Shown here piece after piece: positions 7,985 to 31,813 of a DNA stretch of 32,000 nucleotides. The number at the start of each line of letters is the position of its first letter. Position 1 is the first letter of the stretch. The notes under the pieces were generated by a model. The model saw only the letters and a program-made list of their open reading frames with translations, was not told the DNA's origin and ran no database searches. Source of the stretch: Planctomycetales bacterium (lineage in GTDB: Bacteria; 4484-113; JAFGCY01); contig CP060262.1 of NCBI GenBank assembly GCA_022646745.1, forward strand, positions 1,110,001-1,142,000, in the 5' to 3' direction. The translations under genes were made by a program, and so were the position numbers.

Positions 7985-7992
7985 CTTTCTTC

Positions 7993-15094: not shown

Positions 15095-15096
15095 GC

Positions 15097-17820
15097 ATGA
15101 GTGTTTCTCGTATATATCAGAACCCGTTGGCAATCAACGCCAACCGTAACCTCAAGATCACGGGGATGAACATCTCCAAGTCCCTGGAAAGACTGTCCAG
15201 TGGTCTGAGGATCAACCGTGCCGCAGATGACGCCGCCGGCCTCTCCATCAGTGAGAAGTTGCGCAGCCAGATCCGCGGCCTCAACCGCGCCAGCACCAAC
15301 GCCCTGGACGGCATCAGCCTGATCCAGACCGCGGAAGGTGCGCTCAACGAGACCCACAGCATCCTGCAGCGCATGCGTGAGCTGTCCGTGCAGGCCGCCA
15401 ACGGCATCTACACCGCCGGCGACCGCATCGCGATCCAGCAGGAAGTCAGCCAGCTCGTGGGGGAAATCAACCGCATCTCCGACACCACGGAGTTCAACAC
15501 CAAGACCCTGCTCGACGGGACGCTCGGCGCCCTGATCTCGACTGACGACTTCAGCCGGATCAGCGCGGCCGTGACCGGCAACGTCGGCAAGGGTGGCAAC
15601 TTCGTGCTGAAGGCCGCCGCGCTGACAACCGGCAACCTGCAGGTGCAGAAGTCGGACGTGTTCTCCACGGTGCAGCAGGCGGACGCCGTCGGCCGGATCA
15701 ACTCCGCGCTGACCTTCCGCGCGGATGCGGAGATCGCCACCGCCAGCACAAACGGCGTCGGGCATACCGGCATCTACCAGGTCGAGGTGCTGAATGACAG
15801 TTTCGGCAGCGTGGCCGTGCAGAGCACCGGTCCCGGCACCTTCCGCATCAGCGGTGCCTCGATCAGCGGCGGCGCCCTGAGCATCGGCCGCAACCTGCAG
15901 GCGGAGGAGCTGACCGTCGGCGACAAGATCCTGCTGACAGTCAACACCCAGAGCGGCGTGAGCACGGTCAGCATCGTGCTCGGCAGCCTCGGCACAAACA
16001 TGACGAGCCTGGCCGGACTGATGAGCAACGCGCTGAACGGCGGCTTTGCCAACGTCTCGAACGTGACCTTCAACGCCAGCGGACAGTTCAGCATCAACGT
16101 CTCCAACGGCGGCTCGACCCTGTCCATCATCAGCTCCAAGTTCGTTGACACAGATGGCAGCGGCTCGGACTTCTACATCAGCTTCGGCAGCGCCGGTGGT
16201 TCGAACACCTTCTACAGTTCGGTGCAGTACAGCTTCTTCAACAACGGCAGCGCCACCTCCGGCAGCCTGTCCCGCGGCGGCGGTGCCAGCATCAGCGGCC
16301 ACTTCTTCTCGATCGGCGATGCCAACACGGGCACGATCGGCATCCGCTTCGACACCCGCTATGACTTCAGCCAGGTCAGCCTCGCCAACACGACGGCGAC
16401 CGATACCATCAACTGGAGCCGCTGGGACGGTGGCAACAGCATCCAGGAGTACGGCAAGGTCTGGCAGGATGGACCGGCCGTTACCAACGGCACCTTCATC
16501 GTGTCCAGTGCCGGTGCCCGCACATATGCAATCTACGAATTCGACAACCAGGCATACACTGACCTCGTCGCAGGCGGCGTGGACCAGGACATCGCCTTCA
16601 AGACGGCCCGCGGCGACCGGCAGGTCGACATCAACGGCGACAACCTGTTCTCGATCGGCGTGGCCTTCGAGGGCGCGGTCGGCAGCGACCTGGAGAACAT
16701 CCACTTCGCGCTGGACGGCATCATGCAGGTCGGTGAGCAGGCCACCTTCAACATCAGCACCAACAACGTGCTGACGGCGGACCAGCTCAATACCCTGGCA
16801 AGCCTCAACCGCTTCCAGGAGTTCGGCGTGTTCAACGGCCGCGACAGCGTGGAGCTGACGCTCTTCCTGCGCGGGTCCAGCGAGTCCACCACGATCAACC
16901 TGACCAAGAATGACAGCTTCGAGGACATGGCCGGCAAGATCAGCCTGGCGATGTACAACACCGACGGCAGCGGCATCATCAAGAGCGGCATCATCAACCC
17001 GCAGCAGGTGCCGGACCTGGTGCACGTGAACACGATCGGCATGGCGAAGGGCACGATGTCCATCACCACGGCGGTACCGGGTGCCGAAGTGGTGTTCGCC
17101 GGTGACGAAAGCATCCTGAAGGCCCTGTCCCTGATCGAGATCGAGGAGGGCACGGCCCCCGTCTACAGCATCAGCGCCTTCAACATCGAGAAGAACGCGG
17201 AGGTCGGCAAGGTGATCGTCAACTCCAACGAGATCAACGGCCTGCTGCCCGGCGTGAAGCTGTTCTTCGACAACACACTCGGCCTCAAGCTGGATGCCCA
17301 GCCGCCGACCAGCATCGCCGGCGGCGGCACGAACGGCATGATCAGCTTCGGCTACCAGGCCCCGACGGAGCGCCCGACGATCTCGCTCGGTGGCAACATC
17401 GAAAGCTTCTTCGTCCATGTCGCGCCGCGTGACTTCAGCCTGCAGATCGGTGCCAACCAGGGCCAGACGATCGACACCTTCATCGCCGACATGAGTGCCC
17501 AGGCACTCGGCGTGGAGGGCCTGGTGGTGGTCACGAGTGACCTCGCCCAGGAGGCGATCAGCATCGTTGACAATGCGATCAACACGGTCAGCAGCCAGCG
17601 CTCCAGGCTGGGTGCCCTGCAGAACCGACTGGAAAGCACGATCCGCAACCTGGATGTCAGCGCCGAGAACCTGACCTCATCCGAGAGCCGCATCCGCGAC
17701 GTGGACGTGGCCCTCGAGACGATCGCCTCGACCCGCAACCAGATCCTGCTGCAGGCAGGTGTGGCGGCGATGGCCCAGGCCAACCAGATGCCGCAGCAGA
17801 TGCTGCAGCTGCTGGGCTAA
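15097..17820 (+). CDS. fliC: Giant flagellin paralog 3 (907 aa), the most diverged copy
   Basis: The ORF is open from 15034. Homology to paralogs 1 and 2 (MSVSRIYQNPLAINANRNLK) and the conserved SD leader place the start at ATG 15097. Confidence 0.93.
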   Translation: MSVSRIYQNPLAINANRNLKITGMNISKSLERLSSGLRINRAADDAAGLSISEKLRSQIRGLNRASTNALDGISLIQTAEGALNETHSILQRMRELSVQAANGIYTAGDRIAIQQEVSQLVGEINRISDTTEFNTKTLLDGTLGALISTDDFSRISAAVTGNVGKGGNFVLKAAALTTGNLQVQKSDVFSTVQQADAVGRINSALTFRADAEIATASTNGVGHTGIYQVEVLNDSFGSVAVQSTGPGTFRISGASISGGALSIGRNLQAEELTVGDKILLTVNTQSGVSTVSIVLGSLGTNMTSLAGLMSNALNGGFANVSNVTFNASGQFSINVSNGGSTLSIISSKFVDTDGSGSDFYISFGSAGGSNTFYSSVQYSFFNNGSATSGSLSRGGGASISGHFFSIGDANTGTIGIRFDTRYDFSQVSLANTTATDTINWSRWDGGNSIQEYGKVWQDGPAVTNGTFIVSSAGARTYAIYEFDNQAYTDLVAGGVDQDIAFKTARGDRQVDINGDNLFSIGVAFEGAVGSDLENIHFALDGIMQVGEQATFNISTNNVLTADQLNTLASLNRFQEFGVFNGRDSVELTLFLRGSSESTTINLTKNDSFEDMAGKISLAMYNTDGSGIIKSGIINPQQVPDLVHVNTIGMAKGTMSITTAVPGAEVVFAGDESILKALSLIEIEEGTAPVYSISAFNIEKNAEVGKVIVNSNEINGLLPGVKLFFDNTLGLKLDAQPPTSIAGGGTNGMISFGYQAPTERPTISLGGNIESFFVHVAPRDFSLQIGANQGQTIDTFIADMSAQALGVEGLVVVTSDLAQEAISIVDNAINTVSSQRSRLGALQNRLESTIRNLDVSAENLTSSESRIRDVDVALETIASTRNQILLQAGVAAMAQANQMPQQMLQLLG

Positions 17821-18501: not shown

Positions 18502-20259
18502 CTACTCAGTAGCCTCGTAGCAACCCGCATCCAGCAGGCCGTCGAACACTGGCTGTGGTCGCATGTTGCCATCGAAGTCCAGCGGCGGGAAGCCGAGGAT
18601 GTCCGTGCCCAGTTCAGTTGCAAGCGATCCGGGCAGGATGTGGTAGTCGTCGATCAGTGAATTGAGGAACACAGCCTCATCAGTCATTTCAATGCTGTGC
18701 TGGTCGTTGCCTGTGTTTGACTTCCAGTCAGCCAGGTCGTAGACATTCGCGTCGTCATCAGGCGTGAAGCGGCCGATGGCCAGGTTGTAGTCACTGGAGA
18801 AGCCCGCCAGGCAGTCCGCATCAAGGCTGATCGCGCCGCGGAAGTCATGCCGGTTCCAGAGGATGTTGTTGCGCAGGGTATTGCCGGTGCTGGCGTTTGC
18901 GATCCGGATGCACCAGCGGCCGTCAGCCGCCTGCACGATCGTGTTGCAGACCACCAGGTTGCCGGTGGAGGTCAGGCCGTCCTGGCTGAACAGGGTGATG
19001 CCGGAGGCATGGTTGCCATAGAGAAGGTTGTTGCGGATCACGCTGTCGCGCAGGCCGTCCATGTTGAGGGCCGCACCACCGCCGCTGCCGTTGTCAAAGC
19101 AGACATTGCGCTCAATCAGCGCACCACTCATGATCCCGTCGCCACCCTGGCTGGCATCGGCGTTGAACTGGATCCCGCCGCGCTTGTTGCTGAAGCAGAC
19201 ATTGCCGCGGGCGATGTTCTCATCACCACTGTTGCTGAGGTAGATCCCGTGTTCGTCCCCGCTGAAGCTGCAGGTGTTGTACTCCACCACCAGCCTGTCC
19301 GTGAAGCCGCTGAAGATGCCCCAGCGGGCATTACCGGTGCAGTTGTTGTGCCGGAGGATGATGTCATGCGCCGGCGTCGCAGCACTGCCGACCACGCGGA
19401 TGCCTGCCCGCGAGCAGTCACGTACCGTGAAGCCCTCGACCACGATGTCGTGGATGTCCGGGGCCTCGAAATTCTCGATGTTGATCCCGTCCGGGGTTTC
19501 CACATTGTCAAAGATCACTGCTGCCCCGTCCAGTGCACTGAAGGTGATCGGGGAGCCCGGCATACCGCTGCGCGACAGCATGAAGCCCTCGTAGTTGCCC
19601 GGCCGCACGATCACCGTGTCTCCCGCCACCACGTTGTCAGCAGCCTTCTGCAGGGTGCCCCAGGGCAGGGTCACACTGCCGGGGTTGTTGTCATTGCCAC
19701 CGCTGCTGACAGGTGCGACATAGAACGTGTTGCCACCGTGTTCCTCGTCGTAGACAAGCGCCAGGCTGTCCAGCTGTGACTGCATCCCGCCGGACTTGAG
19801 CGCCGGGGCCAGCACCACGCAGTAGCAGAAGCCGCCCGGGGAAATCAGCCCCTGCGCATCTGACAGGTCAATCAGGGCCTCGCCCTCACTGAGCACGCTG
19901 AAGAAGCGCCAGCGCCCGAGCTGGAAGTCGGCCGCGGCGATGTAGAACAGGCCGCTGCCGCTGGCAATCAGGCTGTCCAGCGGTCCCTCGGGGGCCGGCA
20001 CCTGGAAGATGCACCAGGCATGCTCATCCTGCGTGGGCTTCAGCACGCGGCGTTCCTCATCAAGCGGTTCGCAGTTGAACTGGCTGTGGGGCTGTACGAG
20101 GCTCAGGCGGAAGGATTCGATGATGCTCGGCTGTCGAAGCTGGTCGAGGCCGTTGATGCCAGGCAGCTCTCCATCCACGGGCTGCAGCAGCGGCGCGGCG
20201 GAAGCGCAGGCCGCCATCAGGCAGGCCAGCAGCAGGCATGGCAGGTGGATCAGCCTCAC
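18502..20259 (-). CDS. Secreted right-handed parallel beta-helix repeat protein (pectate-lyase-fold superfamily) with an N-terminal domain of about 190 aa and unknown fold
   Basis: Signal peptide MRLIHLPCLLLACLMAACASA. TFYVAPVSSGGNDNNPGSVTLPWGTLQKAADNVVAGDTVIVRPGNYEGF is the typical beta-helix entry motif. Repeated N-x-x-x-G-I PbH1-like turns follow (NARWGIF, HGIYLSNSGDENIARGNVCFSN, GGIQFNAD, NHASGITLF). Confidence 0.8.
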   Translation of the reverse strand: MRLIHLPCLLLACLMAACASAAPLLQPVDGELPGINGLDQLRQPSIIESFRLSLVQPHSQFNCEPLDEERRVLKPTQDEHAWCIFQVPAPEGPLDSLIASGSGLFYIAAADFQLGRWRFFSVLSEGEALIDLSDAQGLISPGGFCYCVVLAPALKSGGMQSQLDSLALVYDEEHGGNTFYVAPVSSGGNDNNPGSVTLPWGTLQKAADNVVAGDTVIVRPGNYEGFMLSRSGMPGSPITFSALDGAAVIFDNVETPDGINIENFEAPDIHDIVVEGFTVRDCSRAGIRVVGSAATPAHDIILRHNNCTGNARWGIFSGFTDRLVVEYNTCSFSGDEHGIYLSNSGDENIARGNVCFSNKRGGIQFNADASQGGDGIMSGALIERNVCFDNGSGGGAALNMDGLRDSVIRNNLLYGNHASGITLFSQDGLTSTGNLVVCNTIVQAADGRWCIRIANASTGNTLRNNILWNRHDFRGAISLDADCLAGFSSDYNLAIGRFTPDDDANVYDLADWKSNTGNDQHSIEMTDEAVFLNSLIDDYHILPGSLATELGTDILGFPPLDFDGNMRPQPVFDGLLDAGCYEATE

Positions 20260-20337
20260 TCCCTGTTATACCCAGCAGCCCGCGCCGCGCCAAGGGACAC
20301 TTGCTGCGGATCTGCCGCATACTGTGGAACGGAAATG

Positions 20338-20366
20338 AAAAAGGGGAACCCGTGGGCTCCCCTTTC
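20338..20366 (-). terminator. Rho-independent terminator, potentially bidirectional, ending the five-gene operon
   Basis: The minus strand reads AGGGGAGCCCACGGGTTCCCCT followed by TTTTTC. Confidence 0.7.
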
Positions 20367-20386: not shown

Positions 20387-21025
20387 TCAGGACCGTGTCC
20401 AGGGGAACATGATGTGCCCGCTTTCAATGATGTACTGGAAGCGGCCGATCAGCAGCGAGATACGGGCCATCACCGTGTAGCCGAAGCTCGCGCCGAAGCT
20501 GACCATGATGAACACGATGCCCAGCCGGCTGATCATGCCGACGGTACGGCGGTGCTCCAGGCTGAAGAAGAAGTAGATCAGCGTGGAGAACACCGCGACC
20601 AGGATGATGATCTGGTTGATCACCGGGCCCGGGCCGCCGGAGTAGGGCTGCAGGGTCTGGCTGAGCTGCGGCAGCAGCAGCGAATGCACGATCAGTGGCA
20701 GCGAGTAGCCCGCGAAACCACCGATGTACAGCGCAAATGCCATGCGCGAGAGCCAGCTCATCGAGGGGATGATGCGCAGCAGGATGAAGATGCCGAGGAT
20801 GGTCGGGATCAGCACCCAGTAGTTGTGCTGCTGCTTCATGGCCTGGAACACGAGCGGGTAGATCGTGCTCCAGTACTGGATGTTCACGTAGTAACCGACG
20901 GAGATGCCGAGGTACAGGTGCTCCCCGAACTTGAAGGCCGGGTTGTCCTTGTAGATGAAGCTGAACATCATCAGCGTCAGGCCGACGGCAATCCATGTGC
21001 CTAGTACTTCACCTGCCGGGATCAT
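20387..21025 (-). CDS. Operon gene 5: polytopic membrane protein with about 6 TM segments, function unknown
   Basis: 212 aa and hydrophobic throughout. Its start overlaps the upstream stop by 4 nt (ATGA at 21022-21025). Confidence 0.75.
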   Translation of the reverse strand: MIPAGEVLGTWIAVGLTLMMFSFIYKDNPAFKFGEHLYLGISVGYYVNIQYWSTIYPLVFQAMKQQHNYWVLIPTILGIFILLRIIPSMSWLSRMAFALYIGGFAGYSLPLIVHSLLLPQLSQTLQPYSGGPGPVINQIIILVAVFSTLIYFFFSLEHRRTVGMISRLGIVFIMVSFGASFGYTVMARISLLIGRFQYIIESGHIMFPWTRS

Positions 21026-21897
21026 GCGGTCCTCCTTTCCTCACGCTGCCGCTTGTTGGCAATGAAGTAACAGATGTTGGCCAGGATGATCGAGAGCACG
21101 ATGAACAGGTGCACCGCGCTCTGGGCATCCATTCCCTTGACGGCGTTGCCCGCCACGCGGGGCGCGCCACCCTGGACGTTGGGGTACTTGTCCATCAGCA
21201 GTACGTCATACTCCGCGCTGCCCTTCATTCCACCGGAGATGCCATCCAGCTGCCCCGCCTGGTAGTAGGGATAGTAGCCGGCGGCGGAGACCGCGGTGCA
21301 GGCTGCGCTCATCGGCACGTTCTCCGGCGCACTGGCGAAGGCGATCCAGACCTCGACCGTCGCACCGGCGGCGATGTCGACGATGTAATCGCAGTCCTTC
21401 ACACTCTGCACGCGCTGGTAGATCGGCATGTTGGCGGTCGGCCGGTTGTAGAAGTCCGTCGGGTAGGTGCCGGTGATGCTGTTAGTCAGGCCACCGACCA
21501 CCGCCGCGTTGCCGGGCTTGTAGCCGAGGAAGCACCAGTCGGTTCCGTTCGTCTTGCCGTACTGCTTGCTGACTTCCTCTACCGCCTGCTGGACGAGCGC
21601 CGGGCCACCGGGCCACAGCGTGAGGATGTGTACCTTGTGGTCCTTCTCGAAGCAGTGGGCCAGCATCGAGTACAGGAAGGGCTGCAGCTCGGGCTTGGAG
21701 GACGGGTCATAGTCAGCCGCGATCATGATGTCACTGCCGTTGGGCAGTGCATCCACCGCGCTGAAGATCGAACGCACCTCGGGGGTGGTGCCGACCGGCA
21801 TTGACAGCGGCCAGATCAGCGGCCAGGCCACCAGTACGGCGACGCAGGCAAAGATGATCTTGCGGTCCAGGTTGAGGATCAGTGTCACGAAATCCAT
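21022..21897 (-). CDS. Operon gene 4: bitopic protein with N- and C-terminal TM helices flanking a soluble domain of about 230 aa, function unknown
   Basis: TM helices IIFACVAVLVAWPLIWPL and AVHLFIVLSIILANICYFIA. There is a 2-nt gap to the upstream gene. Confidence 0.75.
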   Translation of the reverse strand: MDFVTLILNLDRKIIFACVAVLVAWPLIWPLSMPVGTTPEVRSIFSAVDALPNGSDIMIAADYDPSSKPELQPFLYSMLAHCFEKDHKVHILTLWPGGPALVQQAVEEVSKQYGKTNGTDWCFLGYKPGNAAVVGGLTNSITGTYPTDFYNRPTANMPIYQRVQSVKDCDYIVDIAAGATVEVWIAFASAPENVPMSAACTAVSAAGYYPYYQAGQLDGISGGMKGSAEYDVLLMDKYPNVQGGAPRVAGNAVKGMDAQSAVHLFIVLSIILANICYFIANKRQREERRTA

Positions 21898-21899
21898 TT

Positions 21900-22604
21900 C
21901 TAGTCACCTCCTCCCATGTAGGTCCGCTCAATGCCGAAGATTATTCGGATCGAGATTGCGATCTGGCTCAGGTAGACCCCGAGCAGGATGCCGCGCTTGG
22001 CGGCGGCGTTCGGCACATTCAGCAGCCAGCCGGTCCACTCCTCGAAGTCAATCAGGTGGTACTCGTTCTGGCCGATCATGAAAGCCGGGGTGGCATTGCT
22101 GATCAGGTCGCCAATCGGCACGCGGCCGACCATCATGATGATCGCCGCCACAAGCAGCAGGGTGGCTTCCATGCTGCGGGCGCGGAAGGCGCGGAAGGCT
22201 GCCGATGCGATGAAGAAGGCCAGCACGGAGAACATCGTGGCCTGCATCGGGATGAAGGTGTATTCATAAAGCCAGTTGAATAGCGAGCCGGTTTCCATGT
22301 TCTTCTCGGCGAATCCCGGGAAGGCGAAGGGCAGGAAGCCGGCTGCGGTCATCATGATGAAGGCGGCGATCGTCACGTATGAGAACGCGAATCCCGGCCG
22401 CTTCATCCTGATCTTCAGCATGTGGTGCTGCAGCAGCGACAGGATACCGAGGATCGCCGCGAAGCCCACGATGATGCGCACCCATTCCAGGTAGCCATCC
22501 ACCAGGTTGGTGCTCACCTCGCTGGGGATGTAGTACCTGATCCACATCATGATTCCCGCCACGAAGGCGATGATGATGGGCAGTTGTCGTTTCAGGAAAA
22601 TCAA
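21900..22604 (-). CDS. Operon gene 3: polytopic membrane protein with about 5-6 TM segments, function unknown
   Basis: 234 aa with multiple hydrophobic segments. There is a 10-nt gap to the upstream gene. Confidence 0.75.
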   Translation of the reverse strand: MIFLKRQLPIIIAFVAGIMMWIRYYIPSEVSTNLVDGYLEWVRIIVGFAAILGILSLLQHHMLKIRMKRPGFAFSYVTIAAFIMMTAAGFLPFAFPGFAEKNMETGSLFNWLYEYTFIPMQATMFSVLAFFIASAAFRAFRARSMEATLLLVAAIIMMVGRVPIGDLISNATPAFMIGQNEYHLIDFEEWTGWLLNVPNAAAKRGILLGVYLSQIAISIRIIFGIERTYMGGGD

Positions 22605-22614
22605 CTCATGCCTC

Positions 22615-24303
22615 CTACAGCGGTGTCACCAGGTCACGCAGGACGTCCCACTGCGCACTGAAGATGAAGAGGATTGCCTGCAGCAGGATGATCGCCATCA
22701 TGAAAGCCTTGGCGATGTCCTGGCCCTTCAGGCTGCCCAAAAGCATCGGCTCCCGGGACAGGTAAGCGCTAGCGGCATACAGCTCCTCACCGATCAGCGT
22801 GTAGTCGCAGGTCACGATGAAGAACGGCAGCTGGTGCTCGGCGTCTGTGCCGGCGATCTGGATCGCGCCGGTGTCGGCACCGGTCTCGGCCAGCAGCAGC
22901 GACTCGGCGTAGTAGTAGCCCATCAGGAAGATCGCGGCGGGCTTGTCACGCATCATGATGCCGCAGGTGGCTGCAGTGAATGAGAACTGGTCGTCCGTCA
23001 GGAAGAAGATGTTGTCCTCGCGGTAAGCGTCGGGACGGCCCGCCGTGGCGTAGCCTTCCTTGACGACCTCCTGGGCGACGGTCTGCACCACCGGGTCGCG
23101 GTTCGGCACGATCAGGTCAGACTCGTAGTCCGCGATCTTGCCGGCCACGCGGCCGAGGATGTTGATCGCTGCCAGCGTTGACAGTTCCGAGAGGGACTGC
23201 AGGCCGCAGAGGTACATCACCGGCTTGCCCATCTCCGTGGCACGGCCGATCGCCTCGTCGACGGCCTCCAGGCCGGCGATGCGGCGGATGAACATGTTCG
23301 GGTTGCGCCGCGCGAGGATGATGAAGGTCAGGATGATTCCGCCGAACAGCAGTGCGAAGATCAGGTTATTCAGCTTGCTCTTGTCAAAGGCGTTGCCAAT
23401 CGGGGCGGCGGTGCCGATCTGCACCACGTCCGCCAGCTGCGGCCCGCCGGCCTCGGCCTCGGGGAACATCGGGTTGGCCGGGACGGTGCCGAAGGTGCTC
23501 ATGCGCACCTGGTACTCGATGTCCGGCACCAGCCTGACGGGGATCGCGCGGAACTGCTCTAGCCCGGTGGCTTCATCGCTGGAGTCCGCCGTGCCGGGGT
23601 TCGGCACGGAGATCGTGTCGAAGGTGTAGAACAGCATGCCCGCGTCAGCGCGGCTGGCGGAGTTGACACCGAACAGGTCGCTGCGGTCGCCGCGGGTGCC
23701 GACGGAGGCCATCGGAGCCGGATCGGCCACGCTGATCCATTCCTTGCCGCTGCGCAGCGCCTCGTTGAGGAACTCCCAGGTCAGGGCCTTCAGGCGCAGG
23801 TCCTCGCCTGCATAGGTGCGGGCGGAGAAAGCATTGTGGAGCCTGTTGACCTGGTGGTCCAGGCGCTTGTGCACGCGGTACTTCTGCCAGTATTCATGGC
23901 GCTTCTGGTTGATGGTGCCATCCGGCTCCTTGTCCAGGATCGCCTGGTCAAGCGCGGACTGTGCGGCATCCATCTCGGCCTTGGCGGCATCGCGCTGCGT
24001 CAGCACGTCAGCGATCTGACCGACCAGCCAGCTGCGTGCATCAGTGAGCGTCTTCTGCTGGCGCTCCGTCAGGGCGAAGTGGTCCAGCAGCTGCTCGTTG
24101 ATGCGCACCTCGAAGGAGAACAGGTCGCTCTCCGCCGGTGTCCCGTTCCAGTTCCAGCTTACGGCGAGGGCGCTGCCATCATCATTGGCAACATCCCCCA
24201 GCTCGACATCAGCCGGAGCGGGAACGGCCATGGCGTGCACAGGCAGCAGTACCAGCACCGCTGCCATGCAGGCCAGAATCCGTTTTCCCATTCCCATGTG
24301 CAT
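22615..24303 (-). CDS. Operon gene 2: large membrane protein, function unknown. It has a signal peptide, an extracytoplasmic region of about 280 aa with a coiled-coil-like segment, a TM helix, a domain of about 220 aa, and a C-terminal TM helix
   Basis: Signal peptide GKRILACMAAVLVLLPVHAMA, and TM helices LIFALLFGGIILTFIILA and AFMMAIILLQAILFIFSA. Three in-frame ATGs at 24303, 24297 and 24291 make the exact start uncertain. Confidence 0.75.
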   Translation of the reverse strand: MHMGMGKRILACMAAVLVLLPVHAMAVPAPADVELGDVANDDGSALAVSWNWNGTPAESDLFSFEVRINEQLLDHFALTERQQKTLTDARSWLVGQIADVLTQRDAAKAEMDAAQSALDQAILDKEPDGTINQKRHEYWQKYRVHKRLDHQVNRLHNAFSARTYAGEDLRLKALTWEFLNEALRSGKEWISVADPAPMASVGTRGDRSDLFGVNSASRADAGMLFYTFDTISVPNPGTADSSDEATGLEQFRAIPVRLVPDIEYQVRMSTFGTVPANPMFPEAEAGGPQLADVVQIGTAAPIGNAFDKSKLNNLIFALLFGGIILTFIILARRNPNMFIRRIAGLEAVDEAIGRATEMGKPVMYLCGLQSLSELSTLAAINILGRVAGKIADYESDLIVPNRDPVVQTVAQEVVKEGYATAGRPDAYREDNIFFLTDDQFSFTAATCGIMMRDKPAAIFLMGYYYAESLLLAETGADTGAIQIAGTDAEHQLPFFIVTCDYTLIGEELYAASAYLSREPMLLGSLKGQDIAKAFMMAIILLQAILFIFSAQWDVLRDLVTPL

Positions 24304-24347
24304 ATCCTGCTCTTTTAATGTTTGACCCGTCGTACCGTTGGGCGGGA

Positions 24348-25475
24348 TCAGCCTTCGATCATTTCAATGTTGGCGCGGGGCACCACGATCTTCTCCCCGC
24401 CATCAAATTCCACCTCAAGCACGCGGACCATCGTCTCGCTCTCGACCTTGGTCAGCTCCGGGATCAGCTTGCCGACGCGGCCGATGCGGCCGAAGTAGGG
24501 CTCGCGGATGCAGCGCACCATCGCGCCGATGTCCGTGCCGACGTTCTGCTGCGCTTCCTGCTGAGCGCCGACGGCACCGGTGGTCGGGATGATCACCTCG
24601 GGGCGCATCACGCCCGCGCGGATCTGGGTGGCACCGCTGATGCTGGTGCGCTGGCCCTCCCGCTTCTTCAGCAGGTTGAAGGTCTTGTCCGCCATCGCGA
24701 TCTCGCCGAAGCCCTCGGTCATCACGAGGGTCAGCCCGATCTCCTCGGAGCCGGTGATCGCCACGCCGAGGTCGTAACCGAGGATCGCCTTCAGGTCCTT
24801 GTCATGGAAACCGCCGACGATCACTCCCTTCACGCCGACCTGCTTGCACTTCTCGAATGCCGCGGAGGTCAGCAGGCTGCCGCCGACGACGATCCTGTTC
24901 TGGAATTCAGCCTTGATGTGCTGCTCGTCAAGGATCTCGTCCTTGGAGGAGACGCCCATCACCAAGTCGCCGTGCGTCTCTCCTCCCACGCCGAAGATGC
25001 CCTGCACGAAGCTGCCGTGGGCCTCGACGGAAGCGCCCTCTCCGGGACGCACTTCCACCACCTTGCCATCCACGTAGGCCTGCATCTCAACAAGGCGGGG
25101 CGGATAGCGCAGGATCACCTGCCCGGTCACGTCGGAAACGTTGTCCACCGTGCCGTCGAAATCCACGGTGATGCGGGTCTGGAGGAACTTCAGGCCCAGG
25201 AAGGGCTTGTTCTCCGCGATCACCTCGCCGGCGGTGAACGAGTCACCTGGCTTCTTGAGCATGTAGTCATTGATCATGCCCGGGTCCACGCCCAGCATGT
25301 TCACGACGTTGAGGGTCTTTACCGGTCCGGGGAGTTCAGTGCGTGCAACGACCTGCTCAGCCTTGACCGTGTCGCCTTCCTTGACGAGCACATCTCCCTT
25401 CAGCGGGAGGATACGATCCTTGCGGATCGTGGTTAGTTCAGTGACCTTCAGGCCTGGTACGTATGCATGCGCCAC
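24348..25475 (-). CDS. Operon gene 1: soluble protein with an N-terminal barrel-sandwich (lipoyl/biotinyl-like hybrid) motif and a C-terminal KOW-like segment, function unknown
   Basis: GTG start 11 nt after GGAGGA. PLKGDVLVKEGDTVKAEQVVA resembles the hybrid-motif hairpin. The C-terminus is GRIGRVGKLIPELTKVESETMVRVLEVEFDGGEKIVVPRANIE. There is no Walker A motif. Confidence 0.75.
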   Translation of the reverse strand: MAHAYVPGLKVTELTTIRKDRILPLKGDVLVKEGDTVKAEQVVARTELPGPVKTLNVVNMLGVDPGMINDYMLKKPGDSFTAGEVIAENKPFLGLKFLQTRITVDFDGTVDNVSDVTGQVILRYPPRLVEMQAYVDGKVVEVRPGEGASVEAHGSFVQGIFGVGGETHGDLVMGVSSKDEILDEQHIKAEFQNRIVVGGSLLTSAAFEKCKQVGVKGVIVGGFHDKDLKAILGYDLGVAITGSEEIGLTLVMTEGFGEIAMADKTFNLLKKREGQRTSISGATQIRAGVMRPEVIIPTTGAVGAQQEAQQNVGTDIGAMVRCIREPYFGRIGRVGKLIPELTKVESETMVRVLEVEFDGGEKIVVPRANIEMIEG

Positions 25476-25639
25476 TTGGGTGCCGTCCTCCGGTTTCCCC
25501 GCATGGCGGGGGTTAAGTTTGAGTTACCTATAATAAACCAAAAGCCCGAATAGGTCACTACCCGGCAATCCCCTCACACTTTATCTGACTGCGCCATGGC
25601 CTGTGCCGTGACATCACCTGCGTTGCAAGCAGGGAAAGC

Positions 25640-25668
25640 AAAAAGGCCCCCGCCGTGGCAGGGGCCTC
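25640..25668 (-). terminator. Rho-independent terminator of the 25691-26320 gene
   Basis: The minus strand reads AGGCCCCTGCCACGGCGGGGGCCT followed by TTTTGC. Confidence 0.75.
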
Positions 25669-25690
25669 CAGTTGCAGATCAGGCGGGGAA

Positions 25691-26320
25691 CTAGTCCTCG
25701 TCGCCGAAGTCGTCGTCATCGTCCATTGCGGCGGCCGGAGCAGCGGCAGCGGAAGCAGCAGCCGGGGCGCCACCACCGATGGACCAGTCGTAGATGTACC
25801 AGTTGGCGATCATCGCCAGCGGGACAGTGATCAGTGCACCGATGCCGAACACCGCGCCACCGAGGCCGGAGACGATCATCGTCAGCAGCAGGGGCACGAA
25901 GACCAGGCCGAGGTTGTCCTTCACGTAGTTGAAGCTTTCCTTGGCGGCATCGAAGGCAGCCATGTCACGCTCCAGCATCAGCGGGACCATGAAGGCCAGC
26001 ACGAAGGGGATCACGATGGAGGCCAGTCCAAAGGTGACCACGCTGGCAAGGCCGGCCACCAGGGCAACGACCCAGACCATGAACCACTTGCCGAAGTTGG
26101 AGAACTCGGAAAAGAGGTCGCCGAAGTCAGCGGTGCCACCCTGCTGCACCCTGCGCATCGCCTTGACAATACCCACGAACACGGGAATGCCGGCAATACC
26201 GGCGGTGAAACCCGCGAGAAGGGATCCGACGAGACTTCCAACCACGACGACTATGATGCTGGAAACGAGGTTTGCGGAAAACCTGTTCCATGATTCCGAG
26301 AAAAGTTTGCCGATGTCCAT
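25691..26320 (-). CDS. Polytopic membrane protein with an Ala-rich and then poly-acidic C-terminal tail
   Basis: The ORF is open to 26455, but GGAG lies 7 nt upstream of ATG 26320 and the protein then starts MDIGKLFSESWNRF. It has 4-5 hydrophobic segments and the tail GGGAPAAASAAAAPAAAMDDDDDFGDED. Confidence 0.65.
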   Translation of the reverse strand: MDIGKLFSESWNRFSANLVSSIIVVVVGSLVGSLLAGFTAGIAGIPVFVGIVKAMRRVQQGGTADFGDLFSEFSNFGKWFMVWVVALVAGLASVVTFGLASIVIPFVLAFMVPLMLERDMAAFDAAKESFNYVKDNLGLVFVPLLLTMIVSGLGGAVFGIGALITVPLAMIANWYIYDWSIGGGAPAAASAAAAPAAAMDDDDDFGDED

Positions 26321-26523
26321 CAGTGGCTCCTCAAATGAGATTGTAAGTACGTCCAGGTCTTCTGCTGCAGGTACCAACCATTGGCCCAGCGACCGCCGGC
26401 TTCCTGCGCCGCGACCTGAATTGGACTCCAGGGTATTGAAAGGCTGATTATACATTTATTCCAAATCCGGTCAAACATGATCCGGATTCAGCCGGCAAAT
26501 CCACACGGTCCGCACACATGCTG

Positions 26524-27969
26524 TCAGGGGCGCCTGTCAACGATGCGCTTTTCCTTGCTCATCGTTTCCATGCCAAGTTCCACACTCATCTCCTCATGGC
26601 TGTAGAAGCGGATCTCGTCGATGCCGATCTCGGTCTGGATCTTGAACTTGGTCTGGATCGCCTTCTCGAAGTCCTGCTGGTTGCAGCCATCATGCAGGGC
26701 CACCAGCAGCTGCACCTGGTCCTGGCCGAATTCATTGCCTTCCGGCTTGCTGACCACCATCTGCCATTCGATGATCTCCCGCTCGGCATTGAACAGATTG
26801 AACAGCTCATTGAAGTCCACCAGTGTGCCTTTGACCTTCTTGATCTCGCTCACACGCGTGATGCTGGTGCCGAGCATCGGCAGCATCTTCCCGGTATGCG
26901 GGCACTGGCCGTATACAAGCCCTTCCTTGACGAGGTCGCCCGTGCGGTAACGCAGCACGGTGCTGCCGGCCCCGGAAATGTGGGAATAGACCACCTCACC
27001 CGGCTCTCCCTCCGCCACCGGCTTGCCGGTCTGCGGATCCACCACTTCGAAGATTTCCATGTCGGGGTAGGTCAGGTAGCGCGAATCCTCGCTGTCGGCA
27101 CTTTCCAACCAGGCCTTCTTGGCCTCGGTCATGCCATAGGTCACGAGCACTTTCACATTGCTCGCGCCGAGCTTGCCGAGGCGTTCCTTCAGCTTGAGCT
27201 TGTACATCGGCGGCACACGCTCGGCCCCGAGCACCACGATGCGGATCGCACTCATGTCGGTGCCGAGCTGCTCGCCGAGGTGCACGAGGTGCATGATGTA
27301 GCCGGGGGTGCCGATCAGCACGGTCGGCTTGATGCGGCCGATCACGGCGAGGATGCCCTGGCTGCCCATCACCTTACCGCCGCCGGTGTGCATCACCATC
27401 ACGCCGGCCTCGAATCCCATCTCGCTGATCTGCCAGAATCCGAGGTGCGGGGCAAAGGGCATCACACTGACGATGCGGTCCTGCTTGCGGTCGAATCCGC
27501 TGACCTCGAACATCCGGGCGCCGGCCAGGCGCAGCTGCTGCATGTCGGCCTTTGTGTAGACGAAGGGAGTCGGCAGGGCCGTGCGGCCGGTGGTGAAGGT
27601 AGTCATCACAGGCAGGTACTCGTCCAGCACGATATCCTTGATGCTCTTGCCCTCGCGCTTGGCCCGGGTCACCAGGCCGATCTTGTCGAACAGGCCGAGG
27701 CTCTGCTTGAGCTTCGCCTCATCCGGCTGGATGATGAAGTCGCGGAAGCGCGCCGGGTTCTCCTCTGTGCTGGCAATGTCCTTCTTGTAGGTGAAGGGCA
27801 GCTTCTGCAGGTCCTCCAGCGTGCGCAGGCTGTCCGGGTTGAGGCCGGCCTCATCCAGCACCCTGCGGTAATGCGGGCAGAACGGATAGACCTTGTTCGC
27901 CACGAACTGGTGCAGCTTCCTGCCCTGCCGCTCACGGATCTCGCCAATCGGTACGTTTCCCCATGCCAT
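26524..27969 (-). CDS. Adenylate-forming enzyme of the phenylacetate-CoA ligase (PaaK) / coenzyme F390 synthetase-like family
   Basis: N-terminus has LHQFVANKVYPFCPHYRRVLDEAGLNPDSLRTLEDLQKLPFTYKKDI. Core motifs are TTGRTALPT, GTPGYIMHL, YGMTE and RYRTGD. Confidence 0.8.
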   Translation of the reverse strand: MAWGNVPIGEIRERQGRKLHQFVANKVYPFCPHYRRVLDEAGLNPDSLRTLEDLQKLPFTYKKDIASTEENPARFRDFIIQPDEAKLKQSLGLFDKIGLVTRAKREGKSIKDIVLDEYLPVMTTFTTGRTALPTPFVYTKADMQQLRLAGARMFEVSGFDRKQDRIVSVMPFAPHLGFWQISEMGFEAGVMVMHTGGGKVMGSQGILAVIGRIKPTVLIGTPGYIMHLVHLGEQLGTDMSAIRIVVLGAERVPPMYKLKLKERLGKLGASNVKVLVTYGMTEAKKAWLESADSEDSRYLTYPDMEIFEVVDPQTGKPVAEGEPGEVVYSHISGAGSTVLRYRTGDLVKEGLVYGQCPHTGKMLPMLGTSITRVSEIKKVKGTLVDFNELFNLFNAEREIIEWQMVVSKPEGNEFGQDQVQLLVALHDGCNQQDFEKAIQTKFKIQTEIGIDEIRFYSHEEMSVELGMETMSKEKRIVDRRP

Positions 27970-28036: not shown

Positions 28037-29308
28037 GTGAAGCACTTCCTTACCCTCACCTGTGTTGCCAGCCTGCTGCTGCTCAGCGCCTGCCCGCAGG
28101 ACCAGGCACAACAGTCCGGCACGCAATCTGGAATGGACCCGCTCGAAAACGCTGGCGATGAGGTCGGACCGCAGCCGGATGGCGTGGTGGTGCTGGAAAG
28201 CCCCCTGTGGTCCGTTGAATGGGACGGGGAAGCGCATGGCCTGTCCTTGCCGGAGTTCAGCGAGCTGCTGCTCAATGAGGGCGCTGCTGCACTGCTCGGC
28301 CGGGCGGACTTCAGTGGCTTCGAAACCCGCGCGGAATCAGAGAGCGGCCCGGAGGGCGAGGAGCCGATCGCAATCTGGCTGCTGCCGGAGGACACCACCC
28401 CCGTCGGCTTCAGCGCGCAGCTCGTGGCTTTCGGTGAAGGACGGCGGTTGATCTTCGGCTTCAGCGCCGCCTGGTACGCCGCCAATTTCGGGACGACGCC
28501 GGATGAACTGGACACGCAGTTCCGCAGCATGCATGAAGAGCATGGCGGGGCGGTGCGCAACTACGCCTACCTCGACCCGGACTTCGACGTGAGCTTCTTC
28601 CAGTTTGACTTTGGCAACGACGGCAGTGGAGCCTGGGGCAGCCCCTACATGACGCACAAGCGCTTCACGATGCATGGCGACATCCCCGAATGGAACTTCT
28701 ACTGCATCGGCATCGATGCCGGTGCCACACTGGCAACGCGCCGGGAGTTCATTGCTGAGGCACATGACCAGTCCATGCCTGACCGCACACTACCGGAGGG
28801 GATTGGCAACGAAGCCGGGCCGGACAGGCTGTTGTCACTCTGCGCAGCAGGCAGCAGCGAAATCCTCAGTGAGCTGGGGATCGATCCGGCTTCGGGAAAT
28901 CGCAGTGAGGGCTTCAGCCTGGCCCGCGTGCTCAGGCCACGCACGCAGCTGATGGGCTACACCGGCCAGCTTGAGGATGGCTACCCGCAGTATGAGCTGC
29001 TGCTGGCGGAGAACAGCCTGGTGCAGCAGCTCAGCTTCACCGACAGCTGGCTCGGGCAGCAGGGAATGGCAACGGATGTCTTCGTTGCCCGTTTCGAGGA
29101 ATTGTCAGCGAGCTTTGCAGGCTGGCGGAAGGAACCAGACACGGCGGCCGGTACCGAGATGCGGGACAGCGGCGTGATCATTGGCAACTGGGAGCTCTCG
29201 CGCCGGCAATTCAGCCTGGAAGGTGGGGGATATACGTCTTCATGGGCGATCCGGCCACTGCTGGAGGATGACGGGGAGCAAGAGCCAGCAGAAGGAGAGG
29301 CCGGCTAG
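28037..29308 (+). CDS. Hypothetical lipoprotein
   Basis: GTG start and lipobox MKHFLTLTCVASLLLLSAC. 423 aa with no recognisable motifs. Confidence 0.65.
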   Translation: MKHFLTLTCVASLLLLSACPQDQAQQSGTQSGMDPLENAGDEVGPQPDGVVVLESPLWSVEWDGEAHGLSLPEFSELLLNEGAAALLGRADFSGFETRAESESGPEGEEPIAIWLLPEDTTPVGFSAQLVAFGEGRRLIFGFSAAWYAANFGTTPDELDTQFRSMHEEHGGAVRNYAYLDPDFDVSFFQFDFGNDGSGAWGSPYMTHKRFTMHGDIPEWNFYCIGIDAGATLATRREFIAEAHDQSMPDRTLPEGIGNEAGPDRLLSLCAAGSSEILSELGIDPASGNRSEGFSLARVLRPRTQLMGYTGQLEDGYPQYELLLAENSLVQQLSFTDSWLGQQGMATDVFVARFEELSASFAGWRKEPDTAAGTEMRDSGVIIGNWELSRRQFSLEGGGYTSSWAIRPLLEDDGEQEPAEGEAG

Positions 29309-29310: not shown

Positions 29311-30300
29311 TCAGTTGCTGGCAACGCTGGCGGGCAGGGCCTCCAGCACCTTGCGCTCGATTTCCTCGAGCTCATCCATCCATTCCGGGTTGCGCACCTC
29401 ATCCGCCAGCCGCAGGGCGACCGTGCGGGCCTGACTGATGAAGTCCCGCACGGCATCCATCGAGAACTGGATGCTGCCGCCGGAGAACAGGTGCGCCTTG
29501 ATGGCGTCCGCATCCTCCTGGGCATGGGTCTCCTGGTAGCGCTCGGCAAGCTGCTGGGTGCGCGGCGCATCCTGCATCAGCGAGTGCACCAGCGCAAGCG
29601 TGATGCGGCCCTCGCGCAGGTCGCTCATCACCGGCTTGCCAGTGCTTTCCTCATCCTGGGTCAGGTCCAGCAGGTCGTCCACGATCTGGAAGGCCAAGCC
29701 CAGCAGGCGGCCATATTCCGCTGCCAGCTTGATCTGCCTGTCTTCCGCGCCACCGAGGTAGGCGCCCATCGCGCAGCAGAGGCTGAACAGCACGGCGGTC
29801 TTCAGGTGGATCACGCCGTAGTACTTCTCAACGCTTAAGCGGAAGTTGTTGCGGTTGAGCACTTCCTCGATCACCCCGAGGCCGAGCTCCTGGCTGGTGT
29901 CAAGCAGCATCTCAGTCAGGTTGAAGTCACGCTCGAGGTTGAGGCTCTTCAGCACAAGCGCCAGCACGTAGTCGCCGACGATCACCGCCACCTCATTGCC
30001 GAACATGCTGTTGAGCGTGAGGTTGCCGCGGCGCGTATGCGCCTCGTCGATGATGTCATCGTGGATCAGGGTGGCGGTATGCAGAAGCTCGCAGCAGGCG
30101 GAGCAGTTGATCGCACTCGAGAATTCGGAGCCGCCGAAGATCTCGGCGAAGCTGATCAGCATCCGCGGGCGCAGGCGCTTGCCTCGCGACTTGGAGATCT
30201 CCGTCACGTAACGGGTGACCAGCTGGTCGGAATCGGCGAGTATCTCGCTGATCCGCTCCTCCACGAGGTCGATGTAGTTGTTCAGCTGCTCAGCCCGCAT
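29311..30300 (-). CDS. Polyprenyl diphosphate synthase (trans-isoprenyl diphosphate synthase family, long-chain type likely)
   Basis: First DDxxD region LHTATLIHDDIIDE and second FQIVDDLLD. 329 aa. Confidence 0.9.
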   Translation of the reverse strand: MRAEQLNNYIDLVEERISEILADSDQLVTRYVTEISKSRGKRLRPRMLISFAEIFGGSEFSSAINCSACCELLHTATLIHDDIIDEAHTRRGNLTLNSMFGNEVAVIVGDYVLALVLKSLNLERDFNLTEMLLDTSQELGLGVIEEVLNRNNFRLSVEKYYGVIHLKTAVLFSLCCAMGAYLGGAEDRQIKLAAEYGRLLGLAFQIVDDLLDLTQDEESTGKPVMSDLREGRITLALVHSLMQDAPRTQQLAERYQETHAQEDADAIKAHLFSGGSIQFSMDAVRDFISQARTVALRLADEVRNPEWMDELEEIERKVLEALPASVASN

Positions 30301-30301: not shown

Positions 30302-31813
30302 CTAACCAGCTGTGAGTATAGCGTGTATCCGCTTCTTGAGCCCCTTCAGCCCGCCACCGCGGGCACCGCTCACGAGCAGCATCGCCTGGCCATCCTCCAC
30401 ACGTACATTCACCTTGTGGAACGGCACGTACAGCGCCACTCCGATGCCGATGATCATCAGGATCCAGCCGAGGTAAAGCATCGGCATGCCCGGATCACGC
30501 TTGTAGGAGAAGATCGAGAAGTTCTGGATGCGGTCGGCCAGCTTCAGCTCGACCCACTGGCCGTCCATGCTGACCTTGAAGCCTTTCTCGGTATCAAGGA
30601 TCTGGTCGCTGACTTCGTTCGTCATCAGGTTGTGCTTGTGCACGACCGTCATCGGGCCGAGGTGGCGGTCCAGCTTGCCGTCGATGTAGAGGTCGCCGGC
30701 CTTGACCTTCTCCAGCAGGAATGCGGTGTCCGTGCGGCCGACGGCATCCTCGGCGCGGGCCAGGCGCGGATTGCCGGCCATGTCCGGGATGATGCCGATC
30801 CACATCTCGGCCGGCACCAGCTCCTCGGTGGTCTTGCCATCCACCGTCATCGAAAGGAAGCCGCTCTGCTCGTAGCCGCTCTGGAACAGCATCAGCTTGT
30901 CAATCACCAGCGGGTGGTTGACAATCACCTCGGCGCTGACGGTCTGGCCGTTGCGCTCGGCGGTCAGGGTTGAGACATAGTCCTTGACGAAGTAGTGGCT
31001 GTACTCCTGGAAGTCGTCACTGTACTCCTCGTCGTTCTGCAGCACGGTCGGCAGGATCAGCTTGCGGCCGTAGTCAATCCGGAAGCGGTCCTGGCTGAGC
31101 TGGTAGTCGCGCTTGGGCAGGCCATTGAGGAACCACTTGACCAGCGGGTGCTTGCCGGCGGCCACATCGAGCGTAAGCGTCTGCTGCTCGCCGTCCGCCA
31201 TGCGCACATTGCCCTTGTTGCCAAAGATGCTGCCGTAGATGCCGCCGAACAGCAGCACGAGCACTGCCACGTGCAGCACCACCATGCCCCAGCGCTGGTA
31301 GAAACCACGGTCGCCGTAGATGCAGCGCGCACCCTTGTCGTCCGTCTCCTCGACCACGCGGAAGCCTTCGTCACGCAGAAGCTTCGCCACATCCGCAGCC
31401 GGTGCATCCTTTTCCACATCGAATTCGATGGCACGGCGGTCGGCCCGGTAGAAGCCGGCACCACGCTTCACCGCAGGGGTCTTCCACTCGCGCATCGTGC
31501 GCTTGAAGCGCGTGATGTTGCAGACCGTGGCGCTGACGCAGAGCCACACGAGCGAGATGAAGAACACCGGTGTGAAGTAGATGTGGTGCAAGCCCAGGAG
31601 GCGGATGATCTCCCAGCGCTGCTCACCGTACTTCTGGATGTACTGCTGGTCGATCGGCATGTTGGACATGCCGCCCACCAGGTGCTCCTGCGGCAGCACG
31701 GTGCCCAAGGCGTTGAGCAGCGCGAGCAGCAGCATTACGTAGATTGCGATCGGCAGGCTGTTCAGCCACTTCCAGAGGAAGTTGAACGGCCCCCAGGTTT
31801 TATGTGCTGCCAT
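30302..31813 (-). CDS. resB: Cytochrome c biogenesis protein ResB/Ccs1 (System II)
   Basis: N-terminus WKWLNSLPIAIYVMLLLALLNALGTVLPQE. The architecture is TM helices, a large extracytoplasmic domain and a C-terminal TM helix (MLYLGWILMIIGIGVALYV). Its stop is 1 nt from the downstream start. Confidence 0.8.
   Translation of the reverse strand: MAAHKTWGPFNFLWKWLNSLPIAIYVMLLLALLNALGTVLPQEHLVGGMSNMPIDQQYIQKYGEQRWEIIRLLGLHHIYFTPVFFISLVWLCVSATVCNITRFKRTMREWKTPAVKRGAGFYRADRRAIEFDVEKDAPAADVAKLLRDEGFRVVEETDDKGARCIYGDRGFYQRWGMVVLHVAVLVLLFGGIYGSIFGNKGNVRMADGEQQTLTLDVAAGKHPLVKWFLNGLPKRDYQLSQDRFRIDYGRKLILPTVLQNDEEYSDDFQEYSHYFVKDYVSTLTAERNGQTVSAEVIVNHPLVIDKLMLFQSGYEQSGFLSMTVDGKTTEELVPAEMWIGIIPDMAGNPRLARAEDAVGRTDTAFLLEKVKAGDLYIDGKLDRHLGPMTVVHKHNLMTNEVSDQILDTEKGFKVSMDGQWVELKLADRIQNFSIFSYKRDPGMPMLYLGWILMIIGIGVALYVPFHKVNVRVEDGQAMLLVSGARGGGLKGLKKRIHAILTAG

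Follow-up and report, generated by a model that had tools for sequence, protein, structure and literature searches.

The window analysed here is a stretch of 32,000 nucleotides (nt) from a Planctomycetales bacterium (assembly GCA_022646745.1, contig CP060262.1, positions 1,110,001–1,142,000), and the subject of this work is a block of five minus-strand genes within it, designated g1 to g5, that code for a predicted soluble protein followed by four membrane proteins. In the direction of transcription these are g1 (24348–25475; 375 amino acids (aa), GTG start), g2 (22615–24303; 562 aa), g3 (21900–22604; 234 aa, TTG start preceded by the ribosome-binding site TAGGAGG), g4 (21022–21897; 291 aa) and g5 (20387–21025; 212 aa, 5–6 transmembrane helices). 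The successive junctions measure 44, 10, 2 and −4 nt, the last being an ATGA overlap in which the start of g5 lies on the stop of g4. The original prediction, made from the sequence alone, had described five minus-strand genes with these coordinates and junctions, and the open reading frame (ORF) calls agree. Ribosome-binding sites of the GGAGG type precede g1, g3, g4 and g5; that of g2 is weak. Conserved homologues exist for all five proteins, and the GTG start of g1 and the TTG start of g3 are credible because the N-termini agree with those of the homologues. The G+C content at third codon positions of the five frames is 0.86–0.91, in a window of about 61% G+C, and the long plus-strand ORFs are consistent with antisense shadows, judged from their shifted codon-position G+C; the minus strand is taken as the true coding strand.

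The block is bounded on both sides. Behind g5 an intrinsic terminator is found on the minus strand at about 20337–20365 (GGGGAGCC-CACG-GGTTCCCC, then TTTTTC), at the end of the operon where one had been proposed. Its RNA fold has a free energy of −21.8 kcal/mol (z = −4.42), which was reached by 0 of 200 shuffled sequences, and a U-run follows; a simple pattern scan missed it. Upstream of g1, on the minus strand, lies a promoter-like site at 25530–25558 (GTGACC-17 nt-TATTAT, 9/12 in a consensus scan), which is a pattern match only (1 site found versus about 1 expected from shuffles). Further upstream a pattern scan picked out a terminator-like hairpin at 25642–25669, behind the preceding gene, a 254-aa ORF. 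The genes g1–g5 look like one transcription unit, separate from its surroundings because the hairpin and the promoter-like site lie on the 5′ side and the terminator on the 3′ side.

The g1 protein has neither a transmembrane segment nor a signal peptide and is predicted to be soluble and cytoplasmic. In Pfam it gives a short match to Biotin_lipoyl (E 1.1e-5, aa 29–45, only 17 residues) and weak matches to NQRA_N and RnfC_N that stay under the gathering scores. When 41 members of the family were scanned singly, Biotin_lipoyl was matched by 31, RnfC_N by 23 (best E 9e-6), NQRA_N by 18, and three KOW-type families by 12, 8 and 4, with no recurrent Pfam match for the central part. These matches mark a barrel-sandwich-hybrid hairpin of the Biotin_lipoyl/RnfC_N/NQRA_N type at aa 15–47. 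An AlphaFold2 model of g1 (mean pLDDT, the predicted local distance difference test, 84.8) comprises a beta-rich barrel-sandwich-hybrid part (11–173), a small alpha/beta domain (195–297), a disordered linker (303–312) and a C-terminal KOW/SH3-like barrel (319–372). A Foldseek search of the PDB with this model returned only KOW domains (NusG, Spt5, ribosomal proteins and PetP) and no match to the whole protein; the barrel aligned with KOW5 of Spt5 at an E-value of about 1e-3 and a TM-score of ∼0.8 over the domain. The g1 family profile found nothing significant among the PDB sequences. Pfam and the model thus agree with the first description of g1 as a soluble protein with a lipoyl/biotinyl-like hairpin and a KOW-like C-terminus.

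Some 80 columns are invariant in the g1 family, among them those of a run of glycine-rich loops, and the protein of the window keeps every family-invariant residue. The most conserved block, SGATQIRAGVxRPE (aa 280–293), falls within the small alpha/beta domain. At the hairpin tip the family reads (R/K)-T-E-L-P-G, where L48, P49 and G50 are invariant and position 45 is R in 30/41 and K in 8/41 members. A role as lipoyl or biotinyl carrier was rejected, as the tip has no conserved lysine and neither a DKA nor an MKM motif; the LipA, LplA and GcvP genes near some loci are too rare to count as support for lipoylation. The tetrapeptide SGAT, present in g1 alone among the five proteins, is the core of the ApbE flavinylation motif. 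Covalent attachment of flavin mononucleotide (FMN) occurs at D-x-x-[S/T]-G-A-[S/T] in extracytosolic subunits and strictly requires the Asp (PMC12052999). In g1 this residue is replaced by A, T or C in 41/41 members and the protein is predicted to be cytoplasmic, and flavinylation was rejected. About nine family representatives (P0411, P0443 and some seven more) are variants of about 450 aa with an N-terminal insertion of about 78 aa, which gives extra hybrid-barrel matches (RnfC_N, E 3.7e-9; weakly PTS_EIIA_1 and Peptidase_M23); this suggests that the barrel-sandwich region has been duplicated or expanded in them.

Hydropathy analysis of g2 agrees with the layout proposed earlier, in which the domain between the helices had been given about 220 aa: there is a signal peptide (1–26), an exported region with a coiled coil (∼27–310, about 285–300 aa), a first transmembrane helix (TM1, 313–331), a domain of about 195 aa (∼332–529) and a C-terminal helix (TM2, 530–548). 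Residues 304–552 match the family DUF6754 (PF20539) with 383.9 bits against a cut-off of 27 (E 3.8e-115; profile positions 4–252 of 257). The domain between the helices, the DUF6754 domain proper, is placed in the cytoplasm because basic residues follow TM1, and the hydrophobicity of its second, conserved half is too low for membrane spanning. Seventy-two columns of DUF6754 are invariant across 45 sequences. The AlphaFold2 model of this part is poor (pLDDT 62, dropping to less than 50 where conservation is highest); no fold match was obtained, the model being too poor for a meaningful search, and there was no sequence match in the PDB. Since g2 proteins of minimal size (275 aa) contain only DUF6754, the periplasmic extension is taken to be a lineage-specific addition. 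A look-up of the exact g2 sequence gave no record. In one close relative (L018:1751-3441) g2 is called as two ORFs of 322 and 241 aa that part where the periplasmic extension meets the DUF6754 domain; a frameshift, a fault in the assembly or a true division of the gene could each explain this.

The remaining three subunits have no relative in Pfam, NCBIfam, PADLOC or the PDB, and searches with their family profiles at lenient thresholds found none either. The proposal that g3 and g5 are polytopic is borne out: g3 has about six transmembrane helices, with both termini inside according to the positive-inside rule, and g5 has five to six. Signatures of g3 are TMF..LAFF..SAA.RAFR and a C-terminal ER, and those of g5 are YKDNP, YFFFSxEH and FGxxFGYTVMxRxSLLxGR. 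Both proteins carry conserved charged and polar residues within or beside the helices, and both are devoid of cysteine. In g4, hydropathy places a transmembrane helix at 14–32, a periplasmic domain of about 225 aa, a second helix at 261–279 and a basic cytoplasmic tail. The size of the domain is thus close to the ∼230 aa given before, but the protein has a helix at each end and is not strictly single-pass, contrary to its earlier description as bitopic. Conserved in g4 are D11-R12, E70, D120-Y121, D148 and GG..G.AEYE. None of the five proteins contains a Walker A, HExxH, CxxC, B12, biotin or lipoyl motif. The statement in the original prediction that signature motifs are missing therefore holds for Walker A, HExxH and CxxC and has to be amended for the SGAT tetrapeptide of g1, for which the full motif fails. 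A pseudo-symmetric complex, in which the C-terminal part of g2 would be related to g4 and g3 to g5, was rejected, as all hhalign probabilities were ≤0.5%; g2–g5 are not detectable paralogues of one another.

The distribution of the genes was followed by an exhaustive profile search, by a scan of GTDB genomes with g2 and by a collection of 80 metagenomic g1 loci in which all ORFs were clustered, giving about 100 loci overall. At 90% identity, g1 and DUF6754 are each split into more than 8000 clusters; 3436 representatives of g1 remain at the 50% level. The cluster names are 'hypothetical', 'DUF6754' or a mistaken NusG, and none is functional. Named members are all metagenome-assembled genomes (MAGs), from Nitrospirota, Zixibacteria, Eisenbacteria, Brocadiia, Dormibacteraeota and Ozemobacteraceae among others; further lineages with the system are UBP7, Planctomycetota, Elusimicrobiota, Stahlbacteria, and Bacillota-type and Bacteroidota-type MAGs. 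The nearest relatives of the window are uncultured 'UBP7'-type MAGs, which have the same genes at 72–94% identity and keep the flanking AMP-binding ligase and beta-helix lipoprotein.

The scan of GTDB genomes yielded 15 loci (UBP7, 'Planctomycetales', Stahlbacteria, Elusimicrobiales, Bacillota, Rikenellaceae and Eubacteriales MAGs). DUF6754-g3-g4-g5 occur in the same order in 14 of these and in the metagenome loci that hold the module, with median junctions of 3–22 nt, and g3 always stands directly behind the DUF6754 gene in the loci examined. The exception (L011) is a contig of 8.3 kb on which only DUF6754 and g3 were detected. Synteny of the four genes is thus conserved across many phyla. 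Profile, structure and literature searches assigned the genes to no characterised transporter or respiratory complex; no paper on DUF6754 or on this gene cluster was found in the literature search, and for no component of the system, DUF6754 included, is there a known function, a solved structure or a paper. With conserved synteny and no match to a known complex, the original prediction of a stoichiometric, uncharacterised membrane complex is supported.

The operon is one form of a larger and very widespread system, the usual additional part of which is a GlmL-family ATPase. The canonical gene order is (s154)-(∼120-aa protein)-(ATPase)-g1-DUF6754-g3-g4-g5-(Memo-like), where s154 is a small membrane protein and the Memo-like protein follows g5 in 18 loci; the small upstream proteins s154 and s115 and the Memo-like protein are confined to a subset of the loci. 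The ATPase has about 610 aa and belongs to the GlmL family of ASKHA (actin-fold) ATPases (PF13941, E 4e-129). A GlmL-like ATPase is encoded in 54 of the 58 g1 loci with enough upstream sequence and lies directly 5′ of g1 in 35 of them. Among the 41 g1 loci whose downstream flank is 4.5 kb or longer, the membrane module follows directly in 28, is found elsewhere in the locus in 3 and is absent from 10. Between phyla g1 and the ATPase are 55–70% identical, which is about the level of core cellular machinery. In some loci (L041, L060, L070, L094 and L057) secreted proteins of about 270 aa with a C-terminal transmembrane anchor (f51; no Pfam family) are encoded between the ATPase and g1, and there g1 is followed by TolQ/TolR/TolB. 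A B12-mutase context for the GlmL-like ATPase was rejected, there being no mutase genes in any of the loci examined and no DxHxxG motif.

Two further kinds of arrangement occur. In the first, the ATPase and g1 are fused into a single chain, which is the case for P0382 (995 aa) and P0449 (1003 aa), two separate clusters at 50% identity. The P0449 cluster (Ozemobacteraceae MAGs) has four members from different sources (NCBI, JGI/IMG and ENA); the P0382 fusion (L106:2029-5016) has CdsA upstream and DUF6754-g3-g4 downstream. In the second, one ATPase-g1 pair is followed by two to three tandem modules (L045, L056, L064, L068 and L082). Multiple modules also occur in L057, where they are divergently oriented, and in L047, where no ATPase was detected. 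The median identity between paralogous modules falls from 56% for the DUF6754 domain to 50% for g5, 47% for g3, 40% for g4, the most divergent whole subunit, and 33% for the periplasmic extension of g2. The module of the window shows the same gradient when compared with L104, a second module in a close relative of its organism. The soluble unit (ATPase and g1), which both adjacency and fusion support, and the four-subunit module are two linked yet separable units, and g1 is found with both.

The gene order of the window, g1-DUF6754-g3-g4-g5, is shared with L016, L020 and L105. Homologues of s154 and s115 were not found in the 32-kb window by tblastn, and the gene behind g5 codes for a beta-helix lipoprotein and not for Memo. 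A sister lineage (L105; g1 72% identical) has the same five-gene operon with no ATPase within 10 kb, and because the two are alike the window is taken to represent a conserved variant without an adjacent ATPase; the ATPase of this lineage may be encoded elsewhere or be dispensable. Directly upstream of the operon (25691–26455, minus strand) lies the gene for the above-mentioned 254-aa protein, which is polytopic, has an acidic, Ala-rich C-terminal tail and resembles BPSS1780/YciC/DUF7544 (weak Pfam matches to DUF7544 and GPDPase_memb). Proteins encoded between the ATPase and g1 in L026 and L020 are homologous to it (E 3e-9 and 9e-8, respectively), and by this similarity it may be an accessory component, its membership being uncertain.

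We tentatively propose, at somewhat less than an even chance, that the operon specifies a hetero-oligomeric inner-membrane complex that acts as an energised transporter or transducer. The subunits g2–g5 would assemble into one membrane module of about 16 transmembrane helices, with the variable N-terminal extension of g2 and the ∼225-aa domain of g4 forming the periplasmic face. On the cytoplasmic side g1 would be a peripheral subunit that docks through its barrel-sandwich-hybrid, its KOW/SH3-like barrel or both. The docking site would most likely be the DUF6754 domain of g2, because constraint within the module is strongest there and AlphaFold2 cannot fold this domain on its own; that the model is disordered exactly at the most conserved stretch would be expected of a subunit that takes up its fold in contact with partners. 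In bacteria that have the ATPase, g1 would act as an adaptor and link this ATP-driven engine of the cytoplasm to one interchangeable module or to several. The cytoplasmic side would then be common to all modules and the periplasmic side would set the substrate or partner specificity of each.

Several of the observations above argue for such a complex: the tight junctions, the single promoter/terminator unit and the strict co-linearity of g2–g5; the linkage of g1 to the module and to the ATPase; the ATPase::g1 fusions and the combination of one ATPase-g1 pair with two to three modules; the cytoplasmic domain as the best conserved part; the conserved charged and polar residues at the helices of g3 and g5; and the retention of the five-gene operon in L105 without an ATPase. 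Other observations weigh against it. About a quarter of the g1 loci (10/41) have no membrane module nearby, and modules without g1 occur in L021, L022 and L104, so g1 and the module can be encoded apart and might act separately. No ATPase gene was detected in the 32 kb of the window by tblastn with two ATPase queries. No subunit resembles a known transporter, channel or motor in searches of Pfam, NCBIfam, the PDB and with Foldseek. The neighbouring genes are diverse, with 107 Pfam families represented in 102 upstream neighbours, and fix no substrate, and ASKHA ATPases are not known to drive transporters.

The more specific proposal, that a GlmL-type ASKHA ATPase drives interchangeable DUF6754-g3-g4-g5 modules through g1 and thereby constitutes an undescribed class of machine, is possible but rather unlikely. 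The window would then be a lineage that has the adaptor and the module as a stand-alone operon. If the ATPase does power the module, energy would be coupled to membrane processes through a new architecture in many bacterial phyla; if not, the system would still be a new multi-subunit membrane complex, possibly for envelope or lipid homeostasis. Its genomic anatomy (an ASKHA ATPase, an adaptor, exchangeable modules and fusions) allows a concrete hypothesis to be framed about a large block of microbial dark matter.

The surroundings of the operon in the window are varied. Directly behind the terminator (18502–20259, minus strand) is the gene for a 585-aa lipoprotein-like right-handed beta-helix protein (NosD/Beta_helix/DUF1565), which is syntenic in the close relatives L001–L003 and L023 and not beyond. 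Upstream of the 254-aa protein come genes for an AMP-binding (PaaK-like) ligase (26524–27969, minus strand), a 423-aa ORF without a Pfam family that recurs in relatives (28037–29308, plus strand), a polyprenyl synthetase (29311–30300, minus strand) and a ResB-like cytochrome c biogenesis protein (30302–31813, minus strand), next to which a CcsA-type gene is found in L023. On the far side of the lipoprotein gene are three tandem 'giant' flagellin genes on the plus strand (8622–11336, 11816–14527 and 15034–17820; 904, 903 and 928 aa). Their Flagellin_N and Flagellin_C ends are normal, the ∼680 aa inserted between these have no Pfam match, and the triple arrangement is kept in the near-identical contig L023. 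A link of the operon to motility was rejected, as the adjacency is confined to the window's own relatives. Further ORFs lie at 485–2746, 3716–4567 and 4606–5247 on the plus strand and at 6014–7070 and 7104–8111 on the minus strand, the last without a Pfam match.

The inner-membrane complex proposed above has to be weighed against other explanations. In the first, which we consider unlikely, the ATPase and g1 would form a soluble ATP-dependent enzyme or chaperone for a small molecule or a protein, with g1 as the catalytic component and not an adaptor, by analogy with hydantoinase-A-type kinases or GlmL-type mutase accessory proteins, and g2–g5 would be a separate secondary transporter or a membrane scaffold by which the substrate is delivered or taken over. 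The ATPase family is indeed related to hydantoinase/oxoprolinase and GlmL. The 55–70% identity, the invariant columns of g1, its glycine-rich loops and the SGATQIRAGVxRPE block look like an active site, the ATPase-g1 pairs without an adjacent module (10/41) would be readily accommodated, and among the neighbours are genes of amino-acid, lipoate or phospholipid metabolism. However, in the window and in L105 g1 shares an operon with g2–g5 in the absence of a nearby ATPase, neither a catalytic nor a cofactor motif can be recognised in g1, and no metabolic neighbour is consistent between loci.

Gene context brings in a second explanation, to which we give still less credence. The complex could be an envelope-maintenance machine that, like Tol-Pal, Lol, Mla or Lpt, reaches or signals across the envelope and that moves or inserts phospholipid, lipopolysaccharide (LPS) or lipoprotein components, in which the periplasmic extension of g2 and the g4 domain would contact envelope partners. 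PlsY heads the neighbour families upstream and TolQ those downstream, and envelope genes adjoin the cluster at several loci: GlmL-f51-g1 stands directly upstream of TolQ-TolR-TolB in L041, L060, L094 and L057, KdsA-KdsD-CDP-alcohol phosphatidyltransferase-PlsY directly upstream of the cluster in L051, L058 and L091, a PlsC-like acyltransferase upstream in L105, and CdsA upstream of the fusion in L106. The counts are nevertheless small (PlsY 5/102 of the upstream and TolQ 6/72 of the downstream neighbours) and probably reflect few related lineages; the neighbours in the window are a beta-helix lipoprotein, an AMP-binding ligase and flagellins; and the system is also present in Bacillota-type MAGs, where Tol-Pal and LPS functions would not apply. 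Elsewhere Opp peptide-transporter genes surround the cluster (L016 and L101), and lipoate and glycine-cleavage genes occur in a few loci. Overall, the upstream and downstream genes are too mixed for a function to be derived from them, and envelope or lipid components, or peptides and amino acids, are weak hints at a cargo.

KOW domains contact the transcription and translation machinery in NusG and Spt5. In line with this, a signalling device could be envisaged in which the periplasmic parts sense and the KOW barrel of g1 relays to that machinery; the match of the barrel to NusG/Spt5 KOW, the name NusG given to homologues in some databases and the variability of the periplasmic parts would fit. 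We regard this as very improbable, given that Pfam detects no NGN, DNA-binding or RNA-binding domain in g1, that SH3/KOW-like barrels can also serve for docking only (the fold matches include PetP, a subunit of cytochrome b6f), and that an ATPase partner and a multi-subunit polytopic module are untypical of sensors.

A degenerate Rnf/Nqr complex (g1 as RnfC/NqrA, g2 as RnfD/NqrB, g4 as RnfG/NqrC, and g3 and g5 as RnfA/E or NqrD/E) is hardly credible, for despite the parallel subunit number, sizes and topologies, the RnfC_N and NQRA_N matches at the g1 N-terminus (23/41 and 18/41) and the SGAT tetrapeptide, g2–g5 have no Rnf/Nqr match in Pfam at E up to 1, the profiles of all five proteins find no Rnf/Nqr chain in the PDB at E up to 10, neither NqrA nor RnfC is among the Foldseek top 50 for the g1 model, g3 and g5 are not paralogues and lack cysteine, CxxC occurs nowhere and the flavinylation motif fails. 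Membership is thus largely refuted on each of its marks: the membrane-subunit families, the whole-protein similarity to RnfC/NqrA, the FMN motif and the Fe-S cysteines. The loose resemblance to Nqr and Rnf, with sequences and order that do not match, had been noted from the outset, and this was an accurate description; the sizes and topologies run parallel and the defining features that were tested failed.

What the operon has in common with Rnf and Na+-NQR is a tight gene cluster with one soluble barrel-sandwich-hybrid subunit, a larger membrane subunit, two polytopic subunits of about 200–230 aa and one subunit with a periplasmic domain. The relation in fold and sequence is limited to the N-terminal hybrid hairpin of g1, however, and the gene order differs. 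The present system has no flavinylation motif, Fe-S cysteines, or NADH- or FMN-binding domain, g3 and g5 are not paralogues, and the usual partner is an ASKHA ATPase and not a redox module.

The partner ATPase can be compared with GlmL/MutL, the accessory proteins of B12-dependent glutamate and ornithine mutases (PF13941, NF040745 and NF040744). It is a clear member of PF13941, but its scores are far below the cut-offs of the equivalogs (238 versus 475 bits for GlmL, 211 versus 600 bits for Or-4). It also differs in carrying a further beta domain (∼120 aa) at the C-terminus and in never standing beside mutase genes in the loci examined. With NusG/Spt5 and PetP the C-terminal 55 aa of g1 share the KOW/SH3-like barrel; the NGN domain of NusG/Spt5 is missing from g1 (Pfam, 41 members), and the NusG label on some homologues is a mis-annotation because it is driven by the KOW motif. 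A P-loop transporter of the ATP-binding cassette (ABC) type was rejected, as g1–g5 contain no Walker A motif and no ABC_tran match, and so was a known anti-phage defence system, with no PADLOC-DB match at E≤0.01 for g1–g5 or the partner ATPase.

In its modularity the system recalls the energy-coupling factor (ECF) transporters, in that a shared cytoplasmic ATPase-g1 pair can be followed by two or three paralogous modules, conserved on their cytoplasmic face and divergent in their outer parts. The likeness is no more than an analogy; the two share no homology, and the present system has neither a P-loop/ABC ATPase nor a match to the EcfT or S-component families. The system is new with respect to described systems. 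One of its components is already catalogued as a domain of unknown function, DUF6754 (PF20539), of which g2 is a full-length member, and to this the g2 protein of the window adds a lineage-specific periplasmic extension of about 300 aa.

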